This document shows, in pieces, positions 1 through 45,831 of a stretch of DNA of 64,000 nt. Source of the stretch: Squalus acanthias (lineage: Eukaryota); the NCBI GenBank assembly GCA_030390025.1, contig CM059432.1:97218001-97282000 (forward strand), in the 5' to 3' direction. The translations under genes and the position numbers were made by a program. How positions within the stretch are numbered: position 1 is the first letter of the stretch; the number at the start of each line of letters is the position of its first letter. The notes beneath the pieces were generated by a model. It saw nothing but the letters and a program-made list of their open reading frames with translations, searched no databases and had not been told where the DNA came from.

Positions 1-745
1 ACATTTTCCTTGCCAGGAAGACTTCTTTGAGTTCTACAGAACTGACACAGGAAGACTCTTCTTCGAGTTTTATCGAACCGGTGTGAGGGCACAGGAAGAC
101 TCTTTTTTGAGTAGAGTCGGAACTCCGAGGACAACACAGATCTTCATGACAGCAGACGTTCCAGCCTGCTAGCCGGAGCAGAAAGGAGTAAACAAGTGGG
201 GCCAGGAGACCCCCTGATCGACACGTGGGCGCTGCGGTGAAAAACATCCGATCAGAGTTTTCGGAATTCTCCGAGTTATCACGAGTGGTGAGCATGAGTC
301 TCGAATCCTACGAATCTAGCTTAGGACAGATATTGATAGGGGAGGGTTTCAAGTATTAAGGATAATTGTAATGTGTGCCCCCATTTACGATGTGTCGTTC
401 GTTCCTCGTTTCCCTGAAATTAGTTACATAACTGCATGTAAGATTGTACTGTCATTAATCTGTGCTTATGACATGTATTTCGTAATCTTAAGTATTATGC
501 AATAAAGATTTTCCATTTCGTACCATTCAACCGAGTCTACCTGAGTTTCATCTCCATTACTGCTCTCGCATCTAAGTCCAGTGTCTAGAACCGTAAGGGC
601 GAGTGGGTCGAACCACTCACAGGTGTGTCTAGTGCTCCCAGACTGGCTGGAGACCAGAACAGGCAACAAGGCCTAAACCCGCACTAGCACCCGGGCTGCA
701 CAGAGCCACACGAATCTCACAGGCTGAGAGACAAAAACCCTTACA
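1..745 (+). repeat. 5' LTR (partial, 3' portion)
   Basis: Near-identical to 11086-11830; ends ...CCCTTACA; followed by GAAAA and the PBS; AATAAA at 501-506. Confidence 0.95.
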
Positions 746-749
746 GAAA

Positions 750-2554
750 ATGGCGACCGCGGCAGGACACTGGCAGCGAGAGGGCAGTGTGTTAGACTTT
801 GGTGTGAATGTACGAAATGTTATGCAGGAAAAGATAGCAGATTATGTGTTCAGAAAGGTAAATCTAACTAAGAAATGGATAAGTGACCTGTTAGCGGATA
901 AGAGTCCACTAGAGGCAGCCGAGAGGTGGACAGATAGTAAGGAACATAAAATGACAGTCGAGAAAGCAGTCTGGTTAATGTGTTACAAAAGGCAGGTCCA
1001 GATTTCAAACCAGGTCATTACAGCGCAAACAGCTCGGATCAGGCATTTAGAGGAGGAAATGGATGAGAAAGTCTCTGGAGGGGAGTTGCTCATCAGGAAT
1101 TTAAGTGCGCTGCACCGAGAACGCCAGGAAATCACCAGTCACCACAAAGCAAAAATAGATTACCTCGAGTGTCAGGTCACTGAGGCAAAGTTAAGTGAGG
1201 GCAGACTAAAGGAACGATGTGCCCGCCAAGCTGCCCAAATAAGAGCCCAGGAAGAGAGCTTAACGGGGGTTAGGGCGGCATATAAGATGGCCCTTGAGGA
1301 TAAATTTCAGGGGGCCGATCATAGCGCCTGCCAAAAGGAGATAGAGCACCTTAAAAGGGCCGTGAACAAAGCGCACGGCATGGTGTGCCTTATCAGTCCG
1401 TCAGCACACCAGCCGCTAGTAGATGAGGAGTTTCAGAAATTCCCACCAAGTAAAGCAAAGGAAGTATTAGCCACTATGCCCTCCGCGCCACCCAGCTATT
1501 CGGAAACCTGGGTAAGGGAGGAAGTAGTAGAAGAAATGAAAGAGCCCACTGAGGGAGAAGTGGAAAAGGGACCGTTGTGTCCAGTTACGGGTATAAAAAG
1601 GGGCCCAAACGGGAACGGTGGGGAACCAGGGGATCTCCTCAACCAGCTTGTGTTGCCTCACAGCTCACACCAGCTGAGAGTTATGATAAATCACGTACGG
1701 AAGCTAACCGAGTCAGACGACCCTTCCGTACATTTCAGAGAAGTTGAGCAAACCGCAGCCATTAACGGCTGCGATGATGGGGAAACAGCAAAAATGCTAT
1801 TATTTTCGTTAGGCAGTTCAATCCTTCAGTGTCTCTCGGACGAGAGCAAGAGGGGAACCAAGACATATGAGGCATTAAAAAATGAGGTCCTAGAAGTGTT
1901 GGGGATGGACGATGAAGGTCCGTTTGCTAGAGTGGGACAGACAGTGCAGATGGAGGGAGCACCCCCGAAGGTTTTTGCCGACAGGCTGTGGCCAGTATAT
2001 CAGCGCAGCTGTCCAGGTGCGCCAGAGCGCGACGCTGTGGACGGCGTCGGTTTAACTCATTGGCTCAGGTGTATAGTAGCCAACAGTTTGCCAGCCGTCA
2101 GAGAGCAGGCAAAAGCGTGGTTTGATCCCACTGACACAACATTACGGAAGAGTCGGTCTTAAATCGACTCACGGTAGGATACCGCAATATAAGGGGTATG
2201 GGTACACGTCCCCTTAAGGGAAAAGTACATGAGGTACGACCCGCAGCCCCGGCTCAAAGGGAGTGGCATCAGGAGGGTAACCGCGCCCCGCAGGCAAGTA
2301 ATGCTTGTTACGGGTGTGGGAGGACAGGGCACTGGCGCAAGAACTGCAGGAACCCTTGGAAGGATTCCAGGGATAAAAATCCCGCAGCCCGAGCCCAGAT
2401 GCCTGTCTCGGTTAGGGAAGCTAGTGCACCCACCCCTCCCGACAACCTCGAAACAGTGTTGGGAGCCATGCGCAACTTCATGAGTGCACATGGAAAAGTG
2501 GCGGTTGCTACCGGCCCCGTAGGTGCCGCAGGCCCGTCTAACCATACCCAATGA
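750..2554 (+). pseudogene. gag: gag, split by a 1-nt frameshift near 2135-2140
   Basis: ORF 750-2162 (coiled-coil-like region, PSAPPSY, capsid-like helical region) continues in another frame (ITEESVLNRL...) into ORF 2198-2554 with zinc knuckle CYGCGRTGHWRKNC; ends at TGA 2552-2554. Confidence 0.88.
751..768 (+). promoter_or_regulatory. Primer binding site, complementary to 3' end of tRNA-Arg (TCG-type)
   Basis: TGGCGACCGCGGCAGGAC, 5 nt after the LTR; reverse complement GTCCTGCCGCGGTCGCCA matches the vertebrate tRNA-Arg(TCG) 3' end as I recall it (not searched). Confidence 0.85.
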
Positions 2555-5500
2555 CTAGAGCCCGCGCAGCCCGTCTACCTGTGTCCGCTCAGCTACGATG
2601 CGTGGAAGCGACCCCTGGTGGAAATGGAGGTAGAGAAACAGAAGGGTAGTTATTTGTTGGACACGGGAGCTTCTTGCACCGTGATTCATACAGATAGCCC
2701 TTTTGACTCACCGCTATCTACCAAGGTCCCAATCACATTAGCGAGGTTCATGGGAAAAGAACAGGCTGGCGCGTTCTCCCTTCCGCTATCCATTCGTTTG
2801 GGGGCACTCCACATCAAGTGGAAGTGCATATTGATGGAATGGCAGGAGGGGGGTGGAAGAGGTATCCTCGGGTCCGATCTCCTATCAGGACACGGGATCC
2901 TTGTGGACCTCAGAAATCATTGTCTCTGGGGGGCTAAGAGTGAAAAAGGCGAGGTAGTGGTAATTCCGGGGAGGAAGAAACAGGGGTCCTGTGTACCATG
3001 CAGCCATCCGGAGGCTACGACCTTGGGCTCATGGTCGCAGATGTCCCAACGGACATGCAAACGTACGTGTCAGATAATATGCACGCGTTTGCAACCCACA
3101 AGCACGATTGTGGGAGGGTTACCGGGTTTGAGGTCAGCGTAGATGGGGACCCCATGACCCGGCCCCAAAAACAGTATAACTTCCCCAAAGAAGCAGAACC
3201 CGATATGGAGACAGTAATGTCCTCCTTGGTGCAGCAGGGCGTGTTGAGGCCGATAGCCACGCACGTGAACTCCCCATTATGGCCGGTTAGGAAGCCGGAT
3301 AATTCGTGGAGGGCCACGGTGGACTACAGAGTCCTTAACAGTAACATTCCTGCCTGCGCGCCCACGGTAGCAGCAGTTGCTGACCTAATAGGGAGTATCC
3401 CAGCGTCCGCGACCACGTTCACGGTGCTGGATATCTCGAACGGTTTTTGGTCCATCCCGCTGCGGCGAGAGGACCAGTACAAGTTTGCCTTTACTTTCAA
3501 AGGACAACAGTACACGTGGAACTGTCTGCCACAGGGTTTCCACAATAGCCCCAGTATTTTCCATCAGTGTATGGCAGGAAGTTTAAAGGAGTTTAGTCAG
3601 CCCAATCAGATAGTGCAGTACGTGGATGATTTGCTCCTATTTACGGATTCAAGGGAGGAGCATGGACCACTGCTGGCCGAGTTGTTGGAGCTGCTAGCGA
3701 GAAAGGGTTTTAAAGTAAACCCTAAGAAAGCACGTATTGGTCAGCAGGAAGTAAAATTCCTGGGGCTGACCATTCGCGCTGGGGAAAGAGCCATAGATAA
3801 GGCTAGGAGAGAGTCGGTGCAAGAGTTACCGATTCCTAACAACATAAGGGGTGTGAGGTCCTTCTTGGGACTGACCGGTTACTGCAGGGATTTTATCGAA
3901 GACTATGCGGCCACAGCGGCGCCGCTCCTCCGACTCCTCCATAAGGGAGTGGAGTGGTCTTGGGATGAGGGCTGCCAAGCAGCCTTCGAGAAGTTAAAAA
4001 GGGATCTGCAGACCGCGCCAGCCTTAGGGGCCATAGATGGGGGGAAGGAGTTTTTCCTGGAGGTAGCTGCCAGCGGGGACAGCTTGAGCGCTGTGCTGCT
4101 CCAAGAGCGCCACGGCAAGCTGAGGCCGGTTGTCTATTCGTCCAGGGTGTTAACGGATGTGGAGAGGAGTTTCTCCAATTGCGAAAGGCACCTTTTAGCC
4201 ACGCATTGGGCTGTGAAAAGATCAGCGATCTTCACAGGGCTCTCTCCCATCACTCTCCTCACCCATCATACACCAACTAAGATGCTTTTAGATGGGAGGA
4301 TCAAAGATGGGACCGTAAGCAGCGTGCGTATTGCGCGCTGGACCCTTCTTCTTTCCCAGATGGATCTTAGAGTTAAAGGTCTTTGCGAGCCCAGGCTTGC
4401 GGCCAATTTGGTATACCCCGGTACAGCCCACCGGTGTTCGGTGGAAGGGGTGTGGGACGTCAACATAGGTTTGCGGGCCGGGATACATCCCACTGGGCGC
4501 GAGATTTATGTTGATGGTTCTAGCACAGTATCTGCTGGCGAACGACTCACAGGGTGTGGAGTTTATGACCCTGCGGCAAACCTTGCCCTGGCGATCAAGC
4601 TCCCTAGCACCATGAGCGCGCAGCAGGCTGAGCTGTCTGCCGTGGTGTACGTTGTCACCCACCCAGACATTTTCCCAACCCCATACACGATTTGCTCGGA
4701 CAGTATGTTCACATGCAATTCATGTACGGAATACCTGGCCATTTGGTCCCGCCGTGGATACACCTCCGCGGACGGGCGACCTTTAACGGTGAAGCCCTTG
4801 CTGGAAAAGATCCTAGCAGCAGTAAGGGAGGAAGGGGAGATTTCATCCATAAGGTGAAGGCTCACTCCTCCACAGAGCCCCGTGGGGAGGGCAACCAACA
4901 GGCGGATGCGCTAGCCAGGGAAGGTGCCCGCAACGGCATTTTCTGGGACCCCTATGGGACCAGACCCATGGCAGCGATCCAAGGCAGGGACGGGAATCCC
5001 GGGAACACCAGGGTAGCATTGCCCCTAGACCTTAAGACCGTCCAGAACCAGGATCCCGCCCTAAAAGCAGTCCTAAAAACCATTGCAGAGGGGAAGCAGG
5101 TAGAGGGTCTGTACAGTACGGCAACCCTCTCAGTTAAGGAAGGCATGCTGTTCCACGAGGAGCAGTGGGTTGTGCCACAGCAGCACAGGAGGGAATTCCT
5201 CCAGTTGGCTCACGAGGGACCAGGGGCAGGGCACCCCGGGCCCGAGGTTACCTGGCGACGGGTAGAGCAAGCGGGATGGTGGCCAGGGCTCAGGGAACAG
5301 GTCCGCGAGTTCTGTGCAAACTGTCTCGTGTGCGCTGCAAACAACCCAGACCCCCAGAAAAGGAAAGTGCCCATGGGGCACGTAAGAAGGGTAGAGGGAC
5401 CATGGCAGTTGATACAGATCAACTATATAGGGCCCCTGCCCACCACCCAGGGAGGCTATAAATACTGCCTCGTCTTGGTGGATGTGTTTTCCAAATGGGT

Positions 5501-7085
5501 GGAAGCCTTCCCCTGTCGAACAGCTACGGCACTGGGTACTGCAAAAATCTTGTTCAGGGAAGTGTTCTCGCGGTGGGGACTCCCCCGTTTTGTGGAGTCA
5601 GACCAAGGGAGTCATTTCACCGGCCAGGTGATGCAGAACACCCTCATGCTTTTGGGCATCGAAGGGAAGTGGCACGTAGCACACAATCCCCAGTCATCCG
5701 GGATTGTTGAACGCATGAACCGGACCCTGAAGGAGAAATTGAGGAAAGAGACTAGGAACTCGCCCCAAAAATGGGCGGAAGTTCTGCCTTTAGTCCTCAT
5801 GGGGGTCCGGGCCAGTCAGTCAAAAAGTACGGGGTACTCCCCGCACGAGGTGATGACGGGGAGGCTCATGCGAACCCCCACCCATGTGCTAGCGCCGGTG
5901 CTCACTGAGGGTCAGCTCCAAGAGATAAGCAGGGACAAGTTCGCCCAGACCCTCTTGGAGCGCCTGAAGCAGGTTTATGAGCAGGCGGCTGGGAACATGG
6001 GAAGGCAGCATCAGGGCAATCGCCTGTTGCTGGAACCCCGCAAAACGCGGGAATGGGAAGTAGGAGACCAGGTTATGGTCAGAAACTACGCAAGAGTTGG
6101 GAGTCTGGAACCACTGTATATGGGACCATACAATATTGTAGATAAGGCAAGTCCCATGGTTTACGCCGTAAAGGTACCTCGGCGCACTAAGTGGTTCCAC
6201 GTAAACCAGTGCAAATTGTACAAGCCAGGTGCACAAGGGAAAACCACAGGGGCAAAACCTGCGAGTGGGGACTCGCAGCCCCAGGTAGGACCACAAGGCA
6301 CACAGGCAGGCAAAGCAGCTTGCATCAGGGGAGGAGACATCCTGGAAAATTGTGAAACATTTTTGTGGGGTTGGGAGTCAGATGAGGGAGAGTTCCCGGA
6401 ACTCGAGTCAGATGAGGATAGTGATGAGGACAAGTGGGAATCGGGGAACGCAAGGGTCGCCCCCGATTCAGGTATAGGGAGGACAGGGGCTGCAGATAGA
6501 GATCCACACAGGGTGGACACCGAGGCTGCAGGTCCCGAACACAGGAGGGAGGAGCTAGGGGAGGCGGAGCCAGCCGCTGTGAGACCACAGGGCGTGACGG
6601 CGGAAACCTCAGAGCCCGAGCCGCCCGCCTTGAACGTCCTGCCCTCGAGGGAGGTAGGGATTGCGAGTGAAGGGCCGCCTGCTGGGCCGAGCAGGGCGGT
6701 GCCACAAGCTGCAAGTTCCAAGGTCAGGGAGGCGGAGTCAGGGGAGGCGGAGCCAGCGACTGTGGTGGGACCACAGGTCGTCCCGGCGAAAGTCTCGAAA
6801 CCCGGTCCGTCGGTCCTGGAATTCCTGCCCCCGACAACTCCTCGTAGGTCAAGTAGAGAACCCCAGCCCAGGAAGATGTGGTCATGGCCCCAGACTGCAC
6901 CAAGGCGTAGACTCAAGGTTAAGGCAGCCCAGGTAGGACCCGGTCCCATTGCAGCAGCAACAGGCTGCGGCAGATCAAAGGAAGGGGTCAGTGCCCTCCC
7001 ACCGTCGGGAAGAGCTCGCAGCAGCCTTCTCAGAATTTACAGGGGCCGCCCTGAGAACGGGCGGCGCTGTACAGTTATAGTTTAA
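2555..7085 (+). pseudogene. pol: pro-pol: aspartic protease, RT, tether, RNase H, integrase, C-terminal extension; frameshifts near 2970 and 4842
   Basis: LLDTGAS and GILGSD (PR); LDISNGF, LPQGF, YVDD (RT); VDGS, QQAEL, SDS, HKVKAH, GNQQAD (RNase H); H-H-CLVC, INYIGP, SDQG, VERMN, GPY (IN). Confidence 0.93.
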
Positions 7086-7335
7086 GTTTCTAAGTTTAAG
7101 GTTAAGTTTAAGGTTATAAGTTTATAGTTTTAAAATCGGGTTAAGTTTGTAGTTTAATTTTAACAGAAAATGGTAAAATGATGGGAGCTTTGGATAGGTT
7201 TAGTTAAAGTTTATTTAGTGAACATTGAAGTTTACGTGAGGCGAGGTCAGGGGACCCGCTCACCCTTCACCAAAAGCCAGAGACTCTTGCGAGGCTGGCT
7301 ACCTCATTCTATCTGATCACAGGAACCAAGGAAGG

Positions 7336-9687
7336 ATGGAACGAATTCTAGTATTGCTCGCGGCAATCGGATGTGGATTGGCCTATCGAGGCCGCACCAA
7401 GGATGTCGTGGTGTTTGGATGCTCTGGGGACACGGCCCCCATCGCGGTGGATGGGACCGGAAGACGGGAGGCTGAGGAGACCACCACCTATTTCCACAAG
7501 GGAAGGTGGCCAGGATGGCTGGGAACAAACTCAACGGAGTATTCTAGCACATCGGGGTTTGCCTACCAAGAGACTTCTTTAATGTGCCCCAAAGTAAGGA
7601 TCATCGCACCCAGAATCAGCGTCACCGTCGGCAAACGGATTTGTTTGACTTGTAGTGGGAATGTCCCATTGAGCCAATGGTGGTGGCTGCGAAAGCTGAG
7701 CAAAAACATGAGGAACTCTTCGGTCGAGTGGGAACGACTGGGTAATAATACCCATCGGACAATTACGGGGACAAACAGACAAGTGAGAGTCTGTTGGGAC
7801 AAATGGTGGGAACCGGATGAGGGAATTTATGTATGCATGTGGGGGTCAAAGTACGCTTGCCCCAAAGGCATCTCCATATTTTTCATTAACCAATGGCAGG
7901 ATAACGGACAGGGGATGAGGTGGGATGCGAGCACCAGGGGGTGCGGAGCCCCATACTTTTCGATCCCGGTAAATGCCACTGAGCTCATTACGCGCCCACG
8001 CAAAGCCCCGCCCACGATTCCGGTGGTTCTAGCTGAAGAGGAAGGGTGCCCTAAAACTAGTAAGGGACCCGGGAATGGTTTGGTACTGGTCCCCACAGAC
8101 CAGATACTATTTCAGGGGGTACATTACGTGGTGGCCTCGGTGATTTTAAATCTCACCGAGGTGCGGTTACCAGAGTGGTGCCCCAAAAAGACGGAACAGT
8201 TGTATCAGGTCCTGTTGACCAAGATGTTCAGACAATTTTACGAATTCGATTTCGCGGAAATTGATAAAACAAGTTTGTAAACCGCACCACATGAAGTTTT
8301 GGATCAAGTAGGGAGGCAAAGAAGGGGTGTAGTGAACGACGTGTTCACTGCTTTTAACACGGGTACATCTGTGGTCAACGCTCTAGACAGTGTGGAGCTG
8401 CAGACCCAGATTAATGGTTTAAAGACGCAATTAAAAGACATTCTAACAGATGAGAATAAAGTGGTTGGGTCGGGTTTACACGAGGACCAAGCCATGACTC
8501 TCCATTTAAAGGAAATTATAGCAGAGTTAGAGAAACATGCAAAGACGGTAAATGCCTTGATTTGGGAAGATCGGAATGCATCCGATCAAGCTGCGCAGAA
8601 CGAGGTGTGCGTGCTTTACGGGGCGTGGTTACTGGGCGAGGGCCGCAGTAATTTGGAGGATTTAAAACAAGGTTTGGTCCCGTCCTGGATAAGTAACAAA
8701 CACCTGCGGGCGCTCCACCCTTTTCAGAACGCATTAAGCCCGTGCCAGCTCAGGCTAGCTTCAGAAGCATACCCAGTCCCCGTGGACTGTGGACGATCAA
8801 ACCATGCTATTATGGGTATAGTATTACGTATGCCGGTTTTGGGCGACACAGCAAAGCCCGCCCCGGTGTATCGGGTAGAGAACATTGGTGTCATTCATGG
8901 GGGAGCCCACATTCGCTATGCAGCGGTTCCACCTTACGTCATCCGCTGGGAGCAAACGATGACAGGTACAGATCTCTCTGGTTGTCGTGGCAGGGGAGTA
9001 CACATAATACTGTGTCCCCAGCACTTGAATGCCTTTTTAACACCACAGTGCGGGTTCAGAACGGCTGGCGCCAAGTCCATGAATTGCACCATGGAGGCAA
9101 TGGCACAAGATCATGTGCCTCCGCAGGTAGCATACATCGGGGGTGGAACATATTGTGTTACCACTGCAGCGCAACACTACCAGCATGGAAACCGTAGCCG
9201 GTGTCCGGTGAGTGACAGCAGTTTCTGTTTCAAACCCAGGGCGGAAGTTCAAGTAGCACAACGGCGAATTGTCCCAATCCCTGAACCATCCACTGTTCAT
9301 CTAACAGTAAAAGAGAATTTCACCGACTTGCAGCGATTCGTCGCGCATTTTGGATACCTCATTCCCCCTCTCCCTGAACACCTCACCAAGCTTTTAAAAG
9401 CCGTCGCGGTGTCACAGAAACATTTTTACACATTAGAACAGAAAACTGTCGAAATAGGAACAGACATTCTGGATATAGTAATTCCACCGTGGTGGAATCT
9501 GTTCACCAATATTGAAGTGCCTTCATGGATCAGAATAGCCTCCCACATTTTAGTCGTATGCCAAGTTTTTATTGTAGTGTACCTATTGATCGTACATTGT
9601 AAAAGAGGCAAACGCCTCACCAAGCATGAAAACACGGGAGAGTGGCGAGAACGTTACGTGCGCGTGCACGATGAAAGCACCGTGTAA
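7336..9687 (+). pseudogene. env: env: signal peptide, Ig-like domain, F-like class I fusion glycoprotein; one in-frame TAA at 8278-8280
   Basis: ORFs 7336-8280 and 8299-9687 share a frame. Hydrophobic N-terminus, furin site RQRR (8314-8325), fusion-peptide/heptad region, Cys-rich core, PPWW, TM segment ILVVCQVFIVVYLLIV. Confidence 0.88.
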
Positions 9688-10123
9688 TCGGAAAATGGCA
9701 TCACTCACGCTTGCCACGTGCGCCGCGGAAGTTTGTACTCGTTTCATGATTTTCAAAGACTGTAAATACGTTTGGAACTCGACATGTGTTGAGAGTTGGT
9801 GTTGGTTATTTTGGTGATGGTGTTGTCGTTAAAAATGATTGTTTGGTTTTGGGTTTTGTTTTTCCTTTCCCTGAATAAAAGGATGAATATACAGGTGATA
9901 CGAGAGGCATCGGCCTGGTCACACCGGGAAGGAAAACAAGTGGTGTAAGTTTGAAGGCAAATGATGCCTACGGTGATATAAAGTGTAATTTTCTTGGGAA
10001 ATAAGGACGACGCAAAGACCCTAGATAGTTTAAGTTATGGGATTAATTTTCTGGATCTGGAGAAATCGAGATAATATTGCTCACCACAATATTTTTGATA
10101 CGATAAGCGGAGTTATTCGCATC

Positions 10124-10135
10124 AACAGGAGGGAC
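10124..10135 (+). promoter_or_regulatory. Short polypurine tract
   Basis: AACAGGAGGGAC immediately precedes TGTAG, the inferred 3' LTR start. Confidence 0.65.
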
Positions 10136-10711
10136 TGTAGCATTCGCAATATATCGCGATTTTATTAATAAGGAGAAAAACACATAGTTTCGTTCAAACA
10201 GCTTTTATTTCAGCAGAATGCTGTCAGGTTTTCAAAGTGGACACAAGCAGCTGTAAAATGGCCGCCGCACCTCGTGGCAGAACATTCTAGACTTTTCAAC
10301 AGGCAGACAAGATGGCGTTCCAGTAAACATTTTTGCAAGATCGATTAAGACTCAGCACATTGAAGATAATACACGAGACATCATGGGTTTACAGTATACA
10401 CATAAATACTGAAATCGGTCTCCCAGGTACGAATAAAAGCTATTGTACCAAGTAATCAAGAACCCATCCAAAGACATTAATATGTAGAATCCCAACGACT
10501 CTACGATGAGAGAGCCGTTAGCGGGTAGTTACAGAAAACACTTGGAAGCCCCAAAACCCCTCCGGGGAGAACACCGACCGATTAAACAATGGGAGAAATA
10601 TTAACAGGTACTCAGACATTTACGAGTAGCCCCAAAACCCATTAAAACGAAGATCACCCTATACAAGACATTTGAGCGCCAAACCCTAACAAAAGAAAAG
10701 ACATTAAGGTT

Positions 10712-10742
10712 GGGCGGGAAACGGAAGATTTTGCACTATAAT
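10712..10742 (+). promoter_or_regulatory. Candidate LTR core promoter (GC box, ETS-like CGGAAG, TATA)
   Basis: GGGCGGG 10712-10718, ACGGAAG, TATAAT 10737-10742. Confidence 0.55.
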
Positions 10743-11585
10743 TGCAAGCTCCAAACCGTCCATCTTTCTCTTATTCGGTTGACTCTTATCCTCGTGGCTG
10801 CTCCTGTGCTCTTGACTCGTCGTCTTGTTCCTGTTTGCCTCGTGTCTCTTTTCAAAAGACTGTTGAACTTTACGATCCGCTCGGATCTACCTCGTGTCGT
10901 GTCGCGAAGACCTGTGTAGAACTGGGCTCTGAAGCCTTGAAGCGGGCGCACCATCCCGATAAGTCGGTAAACGGTGTTGGAACCGAAGGCCCGAGATGAG
11001 ATGAGATGAGATGAGATGAGAAGAGAAGAAGACCATACTTATCGCCACGGTCAGTAAGCTCCGACCGCGCCTGTAGGTTGAATAGACATTTTCCTTGCCA
11101 GGAAGACTTCTTTGAGTTCTACAGAACTGACACAGGAAGACTCTTCTTCGAGTTTTATCGAACCGGTGTGAGGGCACAGGAAGACTCTTTTTTGAGTAGA
11201 GTCGGAACTCCGAGGACAACACAGATCTTCATGACAGCAGATGTTCCAGCCTGCTAGCCGGAGCAGAAACGAGTAAACAAGTGGGGCCAGGAGACCCCCT
11301 GATCGACACGTGGGCGCTGCGGTGAAAAACATCCGATCAGAGTTTTCGGAATTCTCCGAGTTATCACGAGTGGTGAGCATGAGTCTCGAATCCTACGAAT
11401 CTAGCTTAGGACAGATATTGATAGGGGAGGGTTTCAAGTATTAAGGATAATTGTAATGTGTGCCCCCATTTATGATGTGTCGTTCGTTCCTCGTTTCCCC
11501 GAAATTAGTTACATAACTGCATGTAAGATTGTACTGTCATTAATCTGTGCTTATGACATGTATTTCGTAATCTTAAGTATTATGC

Positions 11586-11591
11586 AATAAA
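11586..11591 (+). terminator. LTR polyadenylation signal
   Basis: AATAAA, also present at 501-506 in the 5' LTR. Confidence 0.6.
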
Positions 11592-12899
11592 GATTTTCCA
11601 TTTCGTACCATTCAACCGAGTCTACCTGAGTTTCATCTCCATTACTGCTCTCGCATCTAAGTCCAGTGTCTAGAACCGTAAGGGCGAGTGGGTCGAACCA
11701 CTCACAGGTGTGTCTAGTGCTCCCAGACTGGCTGGAGACCAGAACAGGCAACAAGGCCGAAACCCGCACTAGCACCCGGGCTGCACAGAGCCACACGAAT
11801 CTCACAGGCTGAGAGACAAAAACCCTTACAATTAAGAGAGAGAGAAAAAAAGAGACAAAAAGGAAAAGTTCAAACATTTTTTAAAAAGAACAAGCAGAAG
11901 AAGAGGACATTGTAACCCAATTTTCTTTAGGAATTGTTATATTGGCCCTTGAAAATTTAATAATGAATGGCAGGGTAGGTGTACAAAATGTACCAACCTT
12001 CTTGACACCTAAAGTATAGAACCAGCAACCCCATCCATCATGATCTGGATCAATGCAACTGCTTTCATAAGAACATAGGAATTTCTAGATGAATAAAAGA
12101 CTAAGGTCTACTTCGTCTTCTATCATCCTAGTAATCATATGATAATCGAGTTGTTGACTAATCATAGCAATCAATCTCTATCAATTAGTCTACAACAGAT
12201 CCAGACATGATACAAGGAAAACCCCAGTGGTGGAGAGATTTGGAAACCATAGGGCCTAAGCCACCCTTTTCCTCCAAAAGATACTACACTTACCACATCA
12301 TGTCTCAAATTACTTACATTATATCACAAAATTATTTTCTGAAAGCAATCTATCTAATTTGCATTTCTGAGTGTTGAAACAGGTTTGCATCCTGAGAATT
12401 ATTGCCTCCCGACACTAATAGGAATATGGATGGCAAGACTGGCACAAAAGTACTGCCAAGACAGATAAAAAGGTTAAAAATCCTACAGGAACAATTCACT
12501 ACCTGCCGGAGTGAGACTCCACAGCTTCATTGTTCCCACTCTGGTCCTCCAAGGTTCAGTGTCACGTCAGGGCCATAAATCACATCATTAACAAATTCTT
12601 TACTACATGAATTACCAGTCCTAAATGGCTGCGGTGAAATTAATTCGCATTAATGGTGTAAATTCAGCAATTTCTTGACACACAATTAATTTCAATGGAA
12701 GGCTCATGGCGAGGTGACAATTTTTATAGTTTTCTCGAGGCTAACGGCGAAGCAGTGCAACTCGTCCAGCAATTTGTGGAGAAACAGAACTCCTGGTGTA
12801 TCTCTTCTTCACAACAAATTATTGGATATTTTGTAAACTAATAATGGCGAGTGCTGTTAATTCATCATTATTTTTACACTGATTTCTGGGCCAATATCT

Positions 12900-18937: not shown

Positions 18938-20760
18938 ACATAGGAACAGAAACAAAGGAACATAGGAACATAGGAAAAGGAGTAGGCCATTTAGCCCTTC
19001 GAACCTGTTCCCGCGATTCAATGAGATCATGGCTGATCTGCGACCTAACTCCATATACCCGCTTTTGGCCCATATCCCTTAATACCTTTGGTTAACAAAA
19101 AGCTATCAATCTCAGGTTTAAAATTAACAATTGACCTAGCATCAATTGCCATTTGCAGAAGAGAGTTCCAAACTTCGACCACCCTTTGTGTGTAGAAGTG
19201 TTTCCTAATTTCACTTCTTTTAGGTCTGGCTCTAATTTATAGACTATGCCCCTAGTCCTAGACTCCCCAATCAATGGAAATAGTTTCTATCTACCCTATC
19301 TGTTCCCCTTAATATCTTGAATATTTCGATCAAGTCGCCCCTTAACCTTCTAAATTCCAAGGAATACAACACTAGTTTGTGTAATCTCTCCTCATAATTT
19401 AACCCTGGGAGTCCAGGTATTATTCTGGAAAATCTGCACTCCCTCCAAGGCCAATATATCCTTCCGAAGGTGTGGTACCCAGAACTGCTCATAGTACAGT
19501 ACTCCAGGTGTGGTCTAGCCAGGGCTTTGTACACCTGTAACATAACTTCTGCCCTCTTGTATTCTAGTCCTCCAGATATAAAGGCTAGCATTCCATTAGC
19601 CTTTTTAATTATTCTCTGTACCTGTTCATAACATTTTAATGATTTATGTACCTGGACCCCCCCAAGTCTCTTTGGACCTCCACTGTTTTTAGCTTTTCAT
19701 CATTTAGAAAGTACCCTGTTCTATCCTTTTTAGGTCCAAAGTGGGTGACTTCACATTTGCCTACATTGAAATTAATTTGCCACAGTTTTACCCATTCACT
19801 TAATCTATCAATATCTCTTTGTAATTTTATTCTTCTATCTACACTGCCTACAATGCCGCCTATCTTTGTGTCTTCAGCAAACTTGGATATGTGACTTTCT
19901 ATCCCATCATCTAAGTCATGAATAAATATGGTAAATAGTTGAGGCCTCAACACAGATCCCTGCGGGACACCACTAGGCACATGCTGCCAATTAGAGCTCC
20001 TACCCATTATCCCTACTCTCTGTCTCCTGCCACTCAGCCAATCTCCTAACCAGGTCAATAGTTTGTTTTCAATTCCATGAGCTTCAACTTTAGTTAACAG
20101 TCTCTTACGAGGGACTTTATCAAATCCCTTCTGGAAGTCCATATAAATAACATCCATAGACATTCCCCTGCCCACTACTTTAGTCACTTCTTCAAAAAAA
20201 TCAGTCAGGTTCGTCAGGCATGACATAACTTTGACAAATCCATGCTGGCTTTCTCTGATCAGCTGAAAATTTCAAGGTGCTCAGTCACCCTATCCTTAAT
20301 TAAAGACTCTAGTAATTTCCAGACAACAGATGTTAGGCTAACTGGTCTTTAATTCCCTGATTTCCCTCTCTCACCCTTCTTGGGCCATTCAGCCCTTCAA
20401 GCCTGTTCCGCTATTCAGTGAGATCATAACTGATTTGTATCTCAACTCCATCTATCTGCCTTGGCTCCATATCCTTTTATATCTGGTCAAGCAAAAATCT
20501 ATTGATCTCAGATTTAAAATTATTAATTGAGCTGGCAACTATTGCTTTTTATGGGAGAGAGTTCCACACTTCTACTACTCTTTCATAAAGAAATGCTTCC
20601 TAACTACTCTTCTGAATGGCCTGGTTCTGATTTTAAGGTTATGTTCCCTTGTCATAGACTCTCCCACCAGCGGAAAAAGTTTATCTCTATCTACCCTTTC
20701 AATTCCTATCAAATTCCTAAAAACCTCAATCAAATCACCCCTTAACCTTCTACATTCCTC
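18938..20760 (-). mobile_element. CR1 LINE fragments (RT to 3' tail, plus a second 3' fragment from about 20372)
   Basis: SCLTNL, DFQKGFDKVP, PQGSVL, RPHLEYC; (ACATAGGA)n tail at 18938-18975. Confidence 0.85.
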
Positions 20761-21527
20761 TGAGACTTACCATGTGCAAGATTGGATCCTTCACACCACT
20801 TCTGCAGCTCCCATCAATCCAGAAACATTACAGCAGACTCACAACATGCCACACTTACCTGGCGTGGTGTCCGGATGTCGGGAAACACGAGCCAGAAGCG
20901 GCAAAATTCAAAAATAGGCTGTCAACTACTGGCAACTACCTGTTAATAGGCAGGTAATTGCCTTTAATCATCTTCCCGCCGCTAGGTGTCGGGTCCATTT
21001 GCAAATCGGGGACCCGACACTTGGGAAAATTATTTGGAGGCGGGTTGACAGCGGGATCGCAACCCGCCGTCAATCAAAACGACTTTAACCTTTGACCCGC
21101 CTCCAAACCTGCCCTCTGAGCACCAGCAAAATCGTAGCCTCTCTATCTCCTCTATCAAAACCTTTCATAATTTTAAAGACCTCTATTAGGTCACCCCTCA
21201 GCCTTCTCTTTTCAAGAGAAAAGAGACCAGCCTGTTCAGCCTTTCCTGATAGGTATACCCTTGCACTTCTGGTATCATCCTTGTAAATCTTTTTTGCACC
21301 CTCTCCCGTGTCTCTATATCCTTCTTATGGCGACCAGAACTGTATGCAGTTCATCAAGTGTGGTCCAACCAAGGTTTGATACAATTCTACTTTTCAATTA
21401 TTTCCCTTTAGAAATAAACCCGAGTAACATAGAAACATAGAAACATAGAAGATAGGAGCAGGAGTAGGCCATTCGGCTCCTCGAGCCTGCTCTGCCATTC
21501 GATGAGATCATGGCTGATCATCCAAAC

Positions 21528-24326
21528 TCAGTACCCTGTACCTGCCTTCTCCCCATATCCCTTGATACCTTTAGCTTTAAGAAATATATTTAGCTCATCC
21601 TTGAATATATTTAATGACTTCGCCTCAACTACCTTCTGTGGTAGAGAATTCCACAGGTTCACCACTCTCTGGGTGAAGAAATCCTTCCTCATTTCTGTCC
21701 TAAATGGTTTACCCGTTATCCGTAGATTATGACCGCTGGTTCTGGACTCTCCGACCATCGGGAACATTCTTCCTGCATCTAGTTTGTCCAGACCTGTCAG
21801 AATTTTATATGTTTCGATGAGATCCCCTCTCATTCTTCTATACTCCAGTGAGTATAAGCCCAATCGACCCAATCTCTCCTCATATGTCATTCCTGCCATC
21901 CCAGGTATCAGCCTTGTGAATCTTCGCTGAACTCCTTCCATGGCAAGAACATCCTTCCTCAGATAAGGCGACCAAAACTACACACAGTACTCAAGGTGTG
22001 GTCTCACCAAGGCCCTGTACAACTGCAGCAGGACATCCCTGTTCCTATACTCAAACACTTTCGCTATGAAGGCCAACATACCATTTGCCTTCTTCACCAC
22101 CTGCTGCACCTGCATGCTTACTTTCAGCGACTGGTGCACAAGGACACCCAGGTCTCGTTGCACTTCCCCTTCTCCCAATCTATTGCCATTCAGATAATAG
22201 TCTGCCTTTCTTTTTTTGACACCAAAGTGGATAACCTCGCACTTATCCACGTTATATTGCATCTGCCACGCTTCTGCCCACTCACCCAACCTGTCCAGAT
22301 CATCCTGGAGTTTCTCGGTATCCTCCTCGCAGCACACACTCCCGCCCAGCTTTGTGTCATCTGTAAACTTGGAGATATTACATTTAATTCACTTATCTAG
22401 ATCATTAATGTATATTGTGAATAGCTGGGGTCCAAGGACCGATTCCTGCGGTACCCCACTAGTCACTGCTTGCCACTCGGAAAAAGACCCATTAATTCCT
22501 ACTCTCTGCTTTCTGTCCGCCAACCAGTTCTCTATCCAAGTCAATACCTTGCCCCCAATCCCATGTGCCTTAACTTTACCCGCTAATCTCTTATGCGGGA
22601 CCTTATCGAAAGCCTTTTGAAAGTCCAAATACACCACATCTACAGGTTCTCCCTTATCTATTTTCCCAGTTACATCCTCAAAAAATTCCAGTAGATTAGT
22701 CAAGCACGATTTACCTTTTGTAAATCCATGTTGACTTTGTCCGATCCTGTCACTGTTTTTCAAATGCTCAGCTATTACATCCTTTATAATGGACTCGAGC
22801 ATTTTCCCCACTACCGATGTCAGGCTGACCGGTCTGTAATTCCCCGCTTTCTCTCTACCACCCTTTTTGAATAGTGGGGTAACATTAGCTGCTCTCCAAT
22901 CCATGGGTACAGTTCCAGATTCCATCGAATGTTGGAAGATGATCAGCAATGCATCTACTATTTCTAGGGCCACTTCCTTAAGTACCCTAGGATGTAGATT
23001 ATCAGGCCCTGGGTATTTATCGGCCTTCAATACCGTCAATTTCCCGAACACCATTTCCCTGCAAATACTGATTTCTTTCAGTTCCTCCCTTTCATCAGAC
23101 CGTATGTTCTCCAACATCTCTGGGAGGTTATTTGTGTCCTCCTTTGTGAAGACAGAACCAAAATATGCATTTAATTGGGCTGCCATTTCTTTGTTCCCCA
23201 TTATAACTTCCCCCGCTTCTGACTGCAAGGGACCTACACTTGATTTCACTAATCTTTTTCTCTTCACATATCTATAAAAGCTCTTACAGTCAGTTTTTAT
23301 GTTCCCAGCAAGCTTACTTTCATATTCTATTTTTCCCTTCTTAATTAATCCCTTTGTCCTCCTTTGTTGAATCCTAAACTGCTCCCAATCCTCAGGGCCA
23401 CCGCTTTTTCTGGCCAATTTATATGCCCTCTCCTTGTATCTTATGCTATCCCTAATTTCCCTTGTTAGCCACGGTTGAGTCACCCTTTTTGTTTTATTCT
23501 TATGCCACACTGGGATGTACAAATTCTGTAGTTCATCCATGCAGTCTTTGAATGTTTGCCATTGCCTATCCACCATCAACCCCTTGAGTGACATTCCCCA
23601 ATCAATCCTACCCAATTCGCGCCTCATACCATCGTAGTTTCCTTTATTTAAATTCAGGACCCTAGTCTCTGATTCAACTACTTCACTCTCCATCCTAATG
23701 AAGAATGCTATCATATTATGATCACTCTGACCCAAGGGGCCTCGTACAACAAGATTGCTAATTAATCCTTTCTCGCTACATAATACCCAGTCTAAGATGG
23801 CCTGATCTCTGGTTGGTTCCTCGACATATTGTTCCAGAAAACCATCTCGTAAACATTCTAGGAATTCCTCCTCCACAGTATTTTTACTAATTTGGTTAGC
23901 CCAATCTATTTGTAAATTAAAGTCACCCATGATGACTGCTGTGCCCTTACTGCATGCTTCTCTAATATCCCTTTTAATGCCATCCCAAACCTCCGTATTA
24001 CTGTTTGGAGGTCTATATACCACTCCCACTAACGTTTTCTGCCCCTTATTATTTCTCAGTTCTACCCATACAGATTCCGCATCATCAGAGCTAATATCCT
24101 TCCTTTCAATTGTGTTAATCCCCTCTTTAACCAGCAATGCTACCCCACCTCCCTTTCTTTTTTGCCTATCTTTCCTAAATATTGAATAACCCTGGATGTT
24201 GAGTTCCCAGCCTTGGCCACCCTGGAGCCATGTTTCTGTAATCTCAATCAAATCGTATTCATTTACCTCTATTTGCGCAGCTAATTCATCCACCTTGTTC
24301 CGAATGCTCCTTGCATTAAGACACAA
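21528..24326 (-). pseudogene. CR1 ORF2 (APE endonuclease + RT), one stop and a frameshift
   Basis: NARSI, ITETWL, YRPP, GDFN, SDH; NYRPVSLTS, QHGF, DFQKAFDKVPH, PQESVLGP; TGA at 22389-22391 then FTDDTK. Confidence 0.92.
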
Positions 24327-24686
24327 AGGGGGAAAAATTAGGTTGCGCCCCGTTTGGGGCGCAAATATCGTCTGGACGCAAAAATTAGCACCTGGCGCTA
24401 ATTATCGCCACTGACTGGAAACTTCACTTTTACCGCCCCGGGAGGTGAGTGGAGCGCTAAATCAGGCGCTGCACACCTGTCTTAAGGTGCAAAGGCCGAG
24501 CAGTGAGGCGCTAACTCAGCGCGCGAGCGCAGCGCAGGTGCTGCCAGTTAGCGAGGGAACACAGACACACTGGCGCCGGCCAGTTCGTAAAGGGCGGGGG
24601 GGGCAACTTGCTCCCCAGCCACACCCTGCTCATTGCAGCCTTGAATCTCGGCCTGAGAGACCTGTGAATCCATTTTGCTGCCAAGG

Positions 24687-25370
24687 ATGGAGAGGGTGAG
24701 AGAACGAGCTCAGCGCTTCACCGAGCGGGCCTTGGATGCTCTGGTTGGCGCGGTGGAGCGCAGAAAATCTATACTCTTCCCTGAGAGTGGCAGGAGGCCT
24801 TTGCGACGCGAGTACAGAAGAGTGTGGAGGGAGGTGGCTCAGAGCGTCTCCTCCAGGAGCATGGTGCCCAGGACCCATGTTCAATGCTGCAAAAAGTTCA
24901 ACGACCTCACTCGGGTCGTCAGGGTGAGTGGCTTTTTCTCAATACCTCTCCATCCCTCCATCTTAACCTCACTCTATGGCCAGAGGGTCTTAAAACCCCA
25001 ATGCACAACACTCATCCAACACCTATGGCCCTTTCATGAAACACACATACACATTCTACACTTTGCATAGAGTAAGGGCTATTCACCTATGGGAGGCACA
25101 TCAGGCAAGACCATGGCTGCATACAGTAAGGGCTATTCACCTATGGGAGGCACATCAGGCAAGACCATGGCTGTATATTTACTCAGATGCTGTCCTTTTT
25201 CTTGCAGGCCAAGCTGGCACATAATAGGAGACAGCAGCAACGGACAGGTGGAGGGCGGCCTCAGCTGCAACCCCTCAGCCATCTTGAGGAGCGCGTCCAC
25301 AGGATTGTGGCAAGCCGGCTGATCGGTCCCATCGCCACTGGAGACGCCGACCCCGTTCTGGACAGCAATG
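24687..25370 (+). CDS. Harbinger-type Myb/SANT-like DNA-binding protein, exons 24687-24923 and 25208-25370 (3' exons missing)
   Basis: RAQRFTERALDALV...WREVAQSVS...RTHVQCCKKFNDL / AKLAHNRRQQQRTGGG; phase-0 GTGAGT...TTGCAG intron; next donor GTAAGG at 25371. Confidence 0.8.
25071..25178. repeat. 54-bp tandem duplication in Myb gene intron
   Basis: AGTAAGGGCTATTCACCTATGGGAGGCACATCAGGCAAGACCATGGCTG at 25071 and 25125. Confidence 0.9.
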
Positions 25371-25439
25371 GTAAGGTCATCACCTTTTTGTCCTCTGTCC
25401 TTCCACTTGTCCCTCACAACACCAGCCTTTGACACTTTC

Positions 25440-26192
25440 AATCCAACTAGCACGTGGCACTGGTAGCAATCCTGATATTACTACCTTTGAGGTCCTCTTT
25501 TTTAATTTACCTCCTAACTCCCTATATTCTGCTTTTAGTACCTCATCCCGTTTTTTACCTATATCGTTGATGCCTATGTGCACCACGACAACTGGCTGTT
25601 CGCCCTCCCCCTCCAAAGTGTTCTGTAGCCGCTCCGAGTCATCCTTGACCCTTGCACCAGGGAGGCAACACACCATCCTGGAGTCTCGATTGCGGCCGCA
25701 GAAACGCCTATCTATTCCCCTTACAATTGAATCCCCTACCACTATAGCTCTTCCACACTTTTTCCTCCCAGCCTGTGCAGCAGAGCCACCCATGGTGCCA
25801 GGAAGTTGGCTGCTGCCGCCTTCCCCTGATAAGTCATCCCCCCCAACAGCATCCAAAGTGGTATATCTGTTTGAGAGGGGGATGGCCACAGGGGACCCCT
25901 GCACTACCTGCCTGCACCTCTTACTCTGCCTGGTGGTCACCCATTCACTTCCTGCCTGTACACCCTTTACCTGCGGTGTGACCAACTCGCTAAACGTGTT
26001 ATTCACGACGTTCTCAGCGTCACGAACTCTCCAATATGCATCCATCCGCAGCTCCAGCGCCGCAATGCGGTCCGTCAGTAGCTGCAGCTGGATACATTTC
26101 CCACACACATGGTCGTCAGGGACACAGGAAGTGTCCCTGATTTCCCACATATAGCAGGAGGAGCATATCACGGCGCCGAGCTCTGCTGCCAT
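25440..26192 (-). pseudogene. CR1 ORF1 (zinc finger/leucine zipper + SGNH esterase-like), C-terminus lost
   Basis: CSSC...CGKC, LSNRYTTL, IVVGDSIVRGID, CLPGARV, VHIGIND. Confidence 0.88.
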
Positions 26193-26464
26193 GACTTACC
26201 CTTTAATTAATTAATTAAAATTAAACTAATTGAATCCCACCAATTTCACTTCAATTAAATGATATACTCAAGGGCCCTTGCTTAACAGCAGTCCCCGCTA
26301 CAACACAGAGACTCTAGAAACTATAAACCACAGAATTTAAGTGTGGGAAAAAAGGAGAAAAGAGAAATACTCACCAACCAATCACTTACCTGCTTTCTGG
26401 TGACGTCACACTTTGATTATTTTCTACTTCTCTCTCTCCCGCTCTCGGGGCTCAGATTGGTAAG

Positions 26465-41116: not shown

Positions 41117-41344
41117 TGACGTAAGAAAACTACTAGGCACTTGGTCTAAGCGTTAAACAAAGCTTTAATCAACTGTTTTTCAACATGGAGATCGAGTTGT
41201 GTCCTCACTAGTTCCTGTCAAAGAATTTCCTGAGCAAGCTGGGCCCATGCCCGAGTATTTATACTCTCCCTGGACAGCGCCACCAGCAGGCCGCCCAGTA
41301 TTATTTCATAAGTCATTTCCACATGAATGACACGATTCATGTCA
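41117..41344 (-). repeat. Gypsy 3' LTR
   Basis: TGAC...GTCA termini; about 11 substitutions and 2 indels vs 46388-46617 (hand count). Confidence 0.92.
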
Positions 41345-43070
41345 TTCTTCCAGCCTGAAAGATTGGAAGTCCGGCGGCTTCCTTCTATCGAATTAATCGG
41401 ACTAAGAATAGACGCAGTCGTTTGGATTTCCGTTGGAGGCCGGAAGGCACATCTCCTCGGACCGTGTTTTGGTCCCTGGGTCGCTTGGTTCGTACCGGCA
41501 GGCGGGCAGAGTCCGTGTCGCCTTGATCGACCTGAGGGGGACTGGGGAGATCGTGGCTCCAGGTGCGGGCCCCCACCGGCGCAGAGCTGGCTTCACCCTG
41601 CTCAGTAGTCGGTGACTGACTGGCGTCCTGGCTTTGGGTGGCCATCCCGCGGGGAGCGCTCTGTTCCCCGGGTTGATCCAGCAGAGTAGCTGGCAGATCC
41701 ATTGATGTCCCGGGTAGGGCGTCATCCTCGGAGGAGCGCGGATTATCAGCGTCGTTAATACGGATCTCTCTATCGATTGGGTCCGTGGGACCAGTTGGGC
41801 AGGGAGCCAGATCCCGAAGTGAAACTGTTGACTCCCGGCCATCAGGGTACCGCACGTACGCATATGTAGGATTGACATCTGTTAGTTCCACCTCGTCGAC
41901 GAGGGGATCACTCTTGGCGGATCGGACGAATCTTCGGAGCAGCATGGAGCCAGGAACTGACAACTATGATAGTAGGGACGTCCCATGAGTGGAGCGACGC
42001 TGGAACCCGAAGAATTGTTCGTGAGGAGTAACATTGGTGGATGTAGAAAGAAGAGACCTGATGGAATGCAACGCGTCAGGGAGCATAGTTTCCCACTGCT
42101 GGTCTGGTAGATTGTGTGACCTCAGTGCAAGATGAAGAGCGTTCCAAATGATAGCGTTGTATCTCTCAACCTGTCCATTTTCAATAGGATGATACGGTGT
42201 CATTTTACTTGTGGCGATTCCCCGTTGGGAAAAATAACTTTTGAGTTCGCTTGACATGCAGGAGGGACCCCGATCAGAGTGGATGAAATTGGCCATACTG
42301 CAAAGGGAAAAGACCTGATCGAGGCATTTGATCACTGTGGAAGTAAGCATATTGGGACAGGGGACAGCAAAGGGAAAGCGTGAATATTCGTCCACCATAG
42401 TAAGCAAGTAGGTGTTTCGCGTTGAGGAAGGCAATGGCCCTTTAAAGTCAATGCTGAGTCGCTGCATAGGCTGTGTAGCGTGTATGAGCGAGCCATCCGA
42501 CGGACGGAAGTATTGTGGTTTTAATTCCACGCAAATTCTACAAGTGCAGCATGTTCTTTTCATGTCTTCCATAGAAAATGGGAGATTTTTAGATCGCACA
42601 AAGTGCAACATACGGGTAATGCCAGGATGGCATAAGTCAGTATGAAGATCCGCAAGAGTCGAAGTTGACATGGAAGAGCAGAATGCACGCGTGAGGGTAT
42701 CCTGGACCACATTCTCCTTGCCGGGTCAATACTGTATGGTATAGCCAAAGGCGGCCAATTCCATCCTCCAGAGCTGTATTTTGTTATTATTGATTTTAGT
42801 GCATTTCCGGTTATCCAGCATAAAGGCATCAGAGCGCTGATCGGTTATGAGCGTGAAATGGCGACGAGCGAGAAAATGACTCCATTTACATACTGCTTCG
42901 ATGATAGCCATAGCCTCCTTCTCGACAGGAGGATAATGGAGCTTGCTACCCTGCAAAGTCTGGACAAAAATGCAACGGGTCGACCGCCTTGATTCAAGGT
43001 AGCCGAGATCGCCACCTCCGATGCATCACACTCGACCACGAAAGGGAGATTTTCATCGATGGAATGAAGC

Positions 43071-45762: not shown

Positions 45763-45831
<69 letters not shown>

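Follow-up and report, generated by a model that had tools for sequence, protein, structure and literature searches.

A probable immunoglobulin-like domain in the head of an F-type retroviral envelope protein from Squalus acanthias

How does a retroviral fusogen of the paramyxovirus F type find its cell when it has no partner attachment protein? This question is raised by an env gene of Squalus acanthias, at 7336-9687 of a 64,000-nucleotide stretch of contig CM059432.1 (assembly GCA_030390025.1, positions 97,218,001 to 97,282,000, forward strand; hereafter the window, that is, the whole stretch analysed). A first-pass annotation, made from the letters alone, had proposed that a captured host immunoglobulin (Ig) domain is built into the N-terminus of this F-type Env as a receptor-binding or immune-decoy module. 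We found that env residues 85-176 very probably form an Ig fold, lying in the middle of a larger head (aa 17-237) ahead of a core of the paramyxovirus F fold. Because the candidate for the binding role is small, self-contained and open to expression by itself, tests of this question need no virus. The case also bears on a second question, the origin of retroviral Env. The parts of env are as follows.

7336..7383 (+): env signal peptide, aa 1-16, from sequence, boundary by eye; ATG at 7336
7384..7587 (+): N-subdomain of the head, aa 17-84; no family match or confident fold, predicted local distance difference test score (pLDDT) <50
7588..7863 (+): Ig-like domain, V/I type, aa 85-176; Cys106-Trp117-Cys167 core plus Cys103, Cys153 and Cys175
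7864..7986 (+): post-Ig segment, aa 177-217; no family match or confident fold; invariant Cys203
7987..8046 (+): Pro-rich linker, aa 218-237; contains RPRKAPPTIP; pLDDT <50
8047..8325 (+): F2-like segment, aa 238-330; ends in the furin site RQRR (8314-8325); broken by a TAA at 8278-8280
8326..9687 (+): F1-like subunit; fusion-peptide position, long helices, Cys-rich beta domains, transmembrane segment at ~9523-9609, short tail

The Ig-like domain and its age

The motif residues reported by the first-pass annotation were all present. Cys106 (7651) and Cys167 (7834) lie 61 codons apart, Trp117 of the run Trp115-117 stands at +11, the F-strand motif reads D161-E-G163-I-Y165-V-C167, and RPRKAPPTIP occupies aa 220-229 (7993-8022) ahead of the F2-like segment. 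Together they supply the Ig-set hallmarks of a B-strand Cys, a C-strand Trp and an F-strand D/E-x-G-x-Y-x-C, with a Cys spacing within the usual ~55-75. The domain does lie inside the N-terminus of Env and before the Pro-rich linker, as had been stated; however, it adjoins neither the signal peptide nor the linker, since ~68 residues (17-84) intervene on one side and ~40 (177-217) on the other. Shuffling env 1-314 200,000 times produced the pattern C-x(7-17)-W-x(28-60)-D-x-G-x-Y-x-C in 48 cases and a second variant of it in 100; both rates understate chance somewhat because the pattern was composed after the sequence had been seen. In the six frames of the window, the pattern was found once.

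A V/I-type fold at env 85-176 is supported by results that are individually weak and agree with one another. Pfam Ig_3 matched the Ig part at E 0.011 (16.7 bits, below the curated cut-off of 30) and was matched in 10 of 10 aligned members, with a best E of 1.1e-4. In a PDB sequence search, 24 of 24 matches were Ig-domain proteins, none of them significant (E 0.11-1.5; JAM-A at E 0.21). The ESM Atlas (recognition 2785) placed its ten best family matches in one Ig clan, with scores of 0.92-0.94. When a ten-member profile was compared with the PDB, 7 of 13 matches were Ig-type, and the V domain of CRTAM came second (E 0.07, 93 positions aligned). In an AlphaFold2 model of the head, built from a nine-sequence alignment, strands at env 102-107, 115-120, 131-134, 141-145, 149-154 and 164-169 fit Ig topology. 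Foldseek matched this model to antibody-containing entries, with chains of V-domain or single-chain variable fragment length, in 48 of the 48 rows listed (probability 0.98-1.0; best E 2e-3, none at 0.001), and VIA aligned model residues 69-156 (env 85-172) to Ig chains with a best Z of 5.0 and an rmsd of 2.8 over 82 residues.

Some of the same analyses count against an Ig fold. The best PDB match of the ten-member profile was an ArfGAP zinc finger (E 0.01), not an Ig domain; the head model is of low confidence (pLDDT 43 overall, 45-63 in the Ig part); and a VIA Z of 5 is within the range common for unrelated folds. Nevertheless, because the weak results agree and the signature residues are the conserved ones, we hold an Ig fold at env 85-176 to be very probable. 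A virus-made beta-sandwich that merely resembles Ig by convergence, with no host origin, would account for sequence scores that all fall under the curated cut-offs (16.7 bits vs 30), and for an unusually Trp-rich E strand and a CxxC, which can mislead profiles. We consider it very unlikely, given that the B-, C- and F-strand signature residues stand in Ig register over 80-90 residues by several independent methods and are the very residues that are conserved.

The domain holds four further cysteines within it or at its flanks (84, 103, 153 and 175). Judged from strand register, a second disulfide is possible between Cys103 (B strand) and Cys153 (E strand), and the pairs Cys84-Cys175 and Cys29-Cys203 could nest the Ig inside a discontinuous subdomain; the post-Ig segment may close the head module with aa 17-84. 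The Ig part (7588-7863) is also basic, with 15 K/R and 6 D/E, as is that of a skate protein; in other subfamilies it is less so (13-18 K/R vs 9-11 D/E). Glycosaminoglycan binding by a basic Ig part is a possibility.

We then compared the domain with its relatives. From 150 search matches in this genome, 20 sister loci were picked to span the subfamilies, with the match free of stops; they fall into about four groups and are not independent. Over the head, their identity to the window sequence is 48-60%. All 20 keep Cys29, Cys84, Gly99, Cys103, Cys106, Trp115-117, Trp132, Cys153, Trp154, Trp157, Gly163 and Cys203, and 19 keep Tyr165, Cys167 and Cys175; Asp161 of the motif is Glu in 19. Non-synonymous divergence (dN) of the Ig part from these loci was 0.23-0.36, and synonymous divergence (dS) was 2.2-5.2 in 8 pairs (dN/dS 0.05-0.11) and saturated in 12; for the N-subdomain (aa 17-84), dN/dS was 0.12-0.34. 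The conservation of the Cys/Trp/Tyr core that the annotation had proposed as a check in sister copies is thus present in 19-20 of 20 loci, under purifying selection. Named close relatives from skate, sawshark and whale shark carry the same domain, and the skate protein is identical at 65 of 92 Ig residues vs 63 of 77 in the F2 part; word-indexed protein searches returned 2 and 1 relatives.

From these comparisons, the Ig domain has long belonged to the viral protein and has been maintained in it. Its capture from a host gene is putative: no host Ig-superfamily (IgSF) protein was among 51 matches at E<=0.001 in 1.84 billion representatives (full-length query), and the best PDB Ig matches reached E 0.07-0.11. 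On general grounds a host origin is likely, and any capture would be ancient, because synonymous sites between subfamilies are near or at saturation. That a host Ig exon was recently captured by one family as a passenger is extremely unlikely. Retroviral capture of an IgSF mRNA is on record for the endogenous retrovirus (ERV) CrocERV31, whose nectin3 is ~76% identical to the host's (PMC4299795); here, however, there is no close host match, the domain is common to the skate, sawshark and whale shark proteins, and it is found in at least four diverged subfamilies under purifying selection, so that this reading is largely refuted. As a separate observation, pieces of this env sit in the database gene models P0004, P0009, P0012 and P0039, joined to Niban, C2H2 zinc finger, cadherin and F-box domains, through exonisation or annotation error.

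The fusogen core and the slot ahead of F2

The annotation of Env as F-type was strongly borne out by structure prediction. A core model, for which X was placed at the stop and 39 sequences were aligned, had a pLDDT of 62 overall and mostly 70-95 over env 240-650. Foldseek matched the Env model to human parainfluenza virus 3 F at E 2.5e-11, with 238 matches at E<=0.001, and VIA aligned it to Langya F with a Z of 12.2 over 337 residues. The features of class I proteins are present (signal peptide, RQRR at 327-330, long helices, transmembrane segment at ~730-758), with a mildly hydrophobic fusion peptide (19-residue mean 0.88). By sequence, the F part gave nothing significant against Pfam (PF00523 included) or the PDB; its profile search matched fusion proteins at E 1.8-3.3, and that of alignment A2 gave zinc-finger matches alone, caused by the zinc fingers in P0009. 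At the level of the predicted model, the Env core is confirmed as a class I fusogen of the paramyxovirus F fold. Because the VIA alignments begin at env 243-245, against residues 23-38 of paramyxo- and pneumovirus F chains, the modelled head is an addition ahead of the start point of paramyxovirus F2.

In BFVD, the Env model also matched the Envs of the walleye epsilonretroviruses (walleye dermal sarcoma virus and walleye epidermal hyperplasia virus 1) at E 9.9e-12 and 2e-10, and baculovirus F; its match to feline foamy Env was weak (E 1e-4, rank 48). No foamy Env structure was among the Foldseek and VIA rows listed for the core model. The epsilonretrovirus matches, which are to predicted structures, suggest that the F fold is spread among canonical retroviruses. 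The epsilonretrovirus Envs differ in being far longer (1,159-1,317 aa), and we know of no Ig head on them. The F-fold model further matched a fish filovirus glycoprotein (E 1.9e-12), lispivirus glycoproteins and an abalone herpesvirus protein.

We next surveyed the slot ahead of F2 among the distant matches of the full-length Env search, which are ~20-30% identical in the core. The region before the start of the conserved core (C-P...G[LI]V) varies among these F-type Envs. P0014 (Chiloscyllium) has another head, with a Pfam Ig match at E 0.13 and the UniRef name 'Ig-like domain-containing'. The frog proteins P0020 and P0049 have other heads again, without a Pfam match and with Atlas scores of 0.87-0.89; for P0020, 10 of 10 Atlas families are Ig, which is a lead only. 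The head of P0035 matched V-set at E 0.002, lacks the canonical Cys pair and has weak matches that include SLAMF5 and CEACAMs (E 0.36-0.8). P0013, P0024 and P0032 (the Mustelus type) carry a Cys-rich head with no match, and in P0050, P0053 and P0038 the signal peptide runs straight into the core. The P0049 cluster holds 16 near-identical Envs, mostly 677 aa long and spread over many Mantella aurantiaca chromosomes; this frog family is young and has another Ig-like head.

The five head types could not be aligned with one another: profile-profile comparison (hhalign) gave probabilities of 0.1-2.9%, and global alignments were uninformative. Shuffle tests over 34 head comparisons gave weak signals for T1 vs P0020 (1/500), T1 vs P0014 (4/500) and T2 vs P0020 (0/500), which appear to be no more than a shared Ig pattern gives and would fit one origin or several alike. 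In a 17-row tree of the core, the window type grouped (100/100) with the Cys-rich type and not with the other Ig types; five rows of this tree are under half filled, three branches are long and the root is a midpoint root. Since the head types are unalignable and the core tree joins the window type with the Cys-rich type, the heads appear to have turned over or diverged beyond recognition. The Mustelus module as a decayed Ig (CxxC then YVC, with like spacing) had no support from scores (36-114 of 500 shuffles) and was rejected; with the query used, a search of this genome gave no copy of the Mustelus head type at E<=1e-60. P0051 (5,014 aa, E 4e-4) resembles repetitive proteins of bacteria, and we treated its match as chance. 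P0035 as the Env of snakehead retrovirus (SnRV) was ruled out, SnRV Env having a 136-residue tail (PMC12193657).

One tentative reading, which we doubt on present sequences, is that the N-terminal slot has been filled repeatedly by different host IgSF domains as exchangeable receptor-binding heads on one conserved fusogen. It would concern a lineage of canonical retroviruses widespread in sharks, skates and frogs, with at least four mutually unalignable Ig-like types, one of which is a Cys-less V domain like those of CD2, SLAM and CEACAM. If true, repeated capture would be a natural modular route from a fusion-only F protein to a self-sufficient retroviral envelope.

A putative attachment unit and its alternatives

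Ahead of F2, then, the Env carries a disulfide-rich head of ~200 residues that is built around a probable V/I-type Ig domain and joined to the core by the Pro-rich linker. The Ig would most likely have been acquired long ago from a host Ig-superfamily gene whose donor is no longer nameable. Furin cleavage would leave the head module on the surface subunit, where it could bind a glycan or an Ig-family partner on the surface of the host cell to supply attachment and possibly the fusion trigger, roles that paramyxoviruses give to a separate HN, H or G protein. It would act like the receptor-binding domain (RBD) and Pro-rich region of a gamma-type Env, or like the RBD of foamy Env. Gamma-type Envs have an N-terminal RBD, a proline-rich hinge and then the fusion machinery, on a different fusogen fold. 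Viral Ig folds that act in receptor binding include the V-type core of herpesvirus gD and poxvirus A56, which are separate proteins rather than parts of a fusogen. We judge the chance that the head module is a built-in attachment unit to be about even. The role is favoured because the head would stay on the surface subunit, sits on a flexible Pro-rich tether and varies between lineages on a constant fusogen, and because the provirus has no other gene for the task; no + strand frame of 80 codons was found between env and the 3' long terminal repeat (LTR).

Several observations weigh against attachment. The earlier argument that F depends on a separate attachment protein, so that the Ig must fill this place, is weakened by the headless Envs of lokiretroviruses (Loki) and by the foamy Env's own RBD, and headless F-type Envs (published Loki Envs, P0050 and P0053) mean that the head is dispensable for some members. 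A structural or shielding role would explain the strong conservation equally well, and receptor-binding surfaces often vary fast. In paramyxovirus F, the N-terminus of F2 lies low on the head near the stalk; hence, the module need not sit at the apex.

In a rival reading, the head is a structural cap or shield that packs on the F head and stabilises prefusion F or hides it from antibodies (shark IgM/IgNAR), and the F core does the attaching. Within the domain or near it, eight Cys are invariant or nearly so and eight Trp occur; these residues, four N-glycosylation sequons at aa 65-213 and the existence of headless relatives are consistent with such a role. However, the flexible Pro-rich linker (pLDDT <50) suggests a mobile domain over a fixed clamp, and a turnover of unrelated modules fits binding better than a fitted structural role; on balance we find a cap or shield somewhat unlikely.

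The immune-decoy half of the earlier proposal has its counterpart in an immune-modulating mimic (CD2/SLAM-like, CRTAM/nectin-like or JAM-like) that dampens lymphocytes meeting Env-bearing cells. Large DNA viruses use captured IgSF domains in this way. The nearest, weak matches of the domain are the CRTAM V domain and JAM-A (E 0.07 and 0.21), and the P0035 module, without its canonical Cys pair, leans weakly to SLAMF5 and CEACAMs. All of the host-receptor matches are non-significant, though; mimicry usually retains a recognisable host similarity, of which none was found in the 51 matches, and a location within the fusogen favours a role in entry. We regard mimicry as quite unlikely, and attachment remains the reading that we prefer.

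Parts of this architecture have precedents. The RBD of foamy Env does not have an Ig fold and is located within the surface subunit; its leader peptide is long, and a zinc knuckle is absent from foamy Gag. The window Env differs in its short signal peptide, in the CCHC knuckle of its Gag and in scoring better with paramyxovirus F than with foamy Env; on these grounds, and with foamy Env at rank 48 in BFVD, we rejected a foamy virus identity. Foamy Env is related to paramyxo- and pneumovirus F and has its own RBD (PMC11468914; PMC13064090), and neither paper mentions 'Ig-like'. CrocERV31 is likewise an ERV with an IgSF sequence under purifying selection and a proposed aid to infection; in it a whole three-Ig host mRNA replaces env, whereas the window has one unrecognisably old Ig before a complete fusogen (PMC4299795). 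What is known already is therefore an F-fold retroviral Env with its own RBD (foamy) and ERV capture of IgSF genes (CrocERV31). Env38 (PMC10072453) was discarded as a precedent: it is gamma-type, and its 'Ig-like' mentions refer to CD4. In the open-access literature, the scope of the search, no description of an F-type retroviral Env with an Ig domain turned up; subscription papers and Repbase notes lie outside that scope. The guess that the architecture was undescribed holds to that extent, qualified by the 'Ig-like' label that UniRef already gives to P0014.

The provirus and its retroviral lineage

A single provirus spans window positions 1-11830, in the order LTR, gag, pro-pol (reverse transcriptase (RT), tether, RNase H and integrase), env and LTR. 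Its parts other than env are listed here.

1..745 (+): 3' part of the 5' LTR; 5 mismatches in 745 nt vs the 3' LTR; LTR start ~940 bases left of the window
750..2554 (+): gag; two frames here (frame change at ~2135-2162), terminal TGA
~2303-2350 (+): CCHC zinc knuckle of gag
2555..7085 (+): pro-pol with protease, RT, tether, RNase H and integrase, by Pfam
~10124-10135 (+): purine-rich tract ahead of the 3' LTR
10136..11830 (+): 3' LTR, TG...CA, 1,695 bp

The first-pass annotation had viewed the element in a lokiretrovirus frame, which did not survive comparison of the RTs. The window RT carries the motifs LPQGFHNSPSIF and QYVDD; those of Loki RTs in the supplement of PMC7947760 are [CT]PFGYxNSPAEF and IYVDD. 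We built a 27-row RT tree in which P0084 and P0089, recognised by eye against sequences of PMC7947760, stand in for Loki. The window RT fell in a 24-row clade (100/99), apart from the two Loki-motif RTs and a Gypsy RT, and uniting it with the Loki pair was rejected by the approximately unbiased (AU) test (p-AU 0.0245). The clade includes P0085, which matches the published SnRV RT by eye and is 43.5% identical to the window RT; the nearest RTs are frog and coelacanth proteins (50-53%), and the position of the window inside the clade is weakly fixed. The best PDB matches of the RT were murine leukemia virus (230 bits), foamy virus (212) and Ty3 (146), and the nearest Pol matches are labelled 'NYNRIN-like' by their sources. 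A tether plus RNase H (dual RNase H) is present, as in all retroviruses, and is not diagnostic for a lokiretrovirus. From these sequences, the provirus appears to be a canonical, snakehead-retrovirus-like, non-Loki retrovirus.

The likeness to lokiretroviruses lies in an F-like Env with signal peptide, RxKR site, heptad helices and transmembrane segment, in a pol with tether plus RNase H, and in a core start, GP..G[IL]VL, that is similar by eye (Wang and Han, PMC7947760). The Loki Envs differ in that 22 of 23 consensus proteins examined have, by eye, no N-terminal module and one is N-truncated; the main text and supplement of that paper, as far as available, do not mention 'immunoglobulin', and report lokiretroviruses in 0 of 6 cartilaginous-fish genomes. 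SnRV-like class III ERVs (CmiERV lineage I of elephant-shark, PMC4422223; XtERV-S, PMC8278194) share the RT motifs and the Gag zinc knuckle, while XtERV-S has a gamma-type Env (PMC8278194); no F-type or Ig-bearing Env is described for such ERVs in the available parts of the two papers.

This genome also holds a second F-type env lineage, 34-78% identical to P0014 (38 matches), with an RT upstream in 8 of 10 loci examined and, in the aligned pieces, LPQGFHN in 6 and QYVDD in 6, motifs that agree with those of the window RT. Its heads show the pattern G-x-x-V-x-L-x-C ... LNWP..RH.G, and the F-strand Cys is absent in some. Wang and Han treat the F-like Env as peculiar to lokiretroviruses (PMC7947760); the link of a non-Loki RT to an F-fold Env in two lineages of this genome, together with the foamy and epsilonretroviral Envs as structural relatives, speaks for an F fold that arose early and is widely distributed among retroviruses.

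The insertion is young: the LTRs are nearly identical (14 mismatches over 1,683 aligned bases of the whole pair, plus one gap of ~10 nt) and they are flanked by a 4-bp target duplication, ATTA. Such duplications are typically 4 bp in ERV1 and 5 bp in ERV3 and ERV4 (PMC4299795). The window copy is defective, with frame changes in gag and pol and the in-frame TAA in env; its pro-pol lies in three frames (shifts near 2970-3020 and 4770-4840), and in a relative that is 90% identical (P0069) the pro-pol parts are all within one protein. We searched the 3.7 Gb genome with env 79-221 and scored 150 of 5,683 first-look candidates. The scored copies, the window's own included, were 96-100% identical to env 79-221, and 81 of them sit in an open frame of at least 815 codons with the match stop-free. 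With 5,683 first-look candidates and LTRs 99% alike, the family is young, high-copy and a major recent invader of this genome.

A listing of 14 rows from 7 studies gave contigs from four sequencing runs that cover 30 of 30 bins of 400-10100, with no 5' leader-to-env joint among the contigs listed; no RNA source is listed, and neither result bears on expression.

Further features of the provirus were noted by inspection. At 2552-2558, the gag TGA is followed by CTAG, with the protease frame in phase beyond. UGA-CUAG is a known read-through context, and Gag-Pol may for this reason be made by UGA suppression. The LTR ends at 745; just after it (746-770), a likely primer-binding site opens with a TGG, which shares bases with the first in-frame ATG of gag (750). 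The integrase frame extends over ~280 Pro/Ala/Glu-rich codons (~6230-7230), followed by a GT/AT-rich spacer and a splice-acceptor-like stretch at ~7305-7322. Elsewhere in the window, we recognised by eye LINE-type endonuclease/RT frames that are broken, and an LTR element in decay that still shows pieces of gag, protease, RT and integrase, at the following positions.

19636-26195 (-): LINE-type/LTR remnants, by eye
34302-36154 (+): LINE-type/LTR remnants, by eye
41215-46618 (-): LINE-type/LTR remnants, by eye

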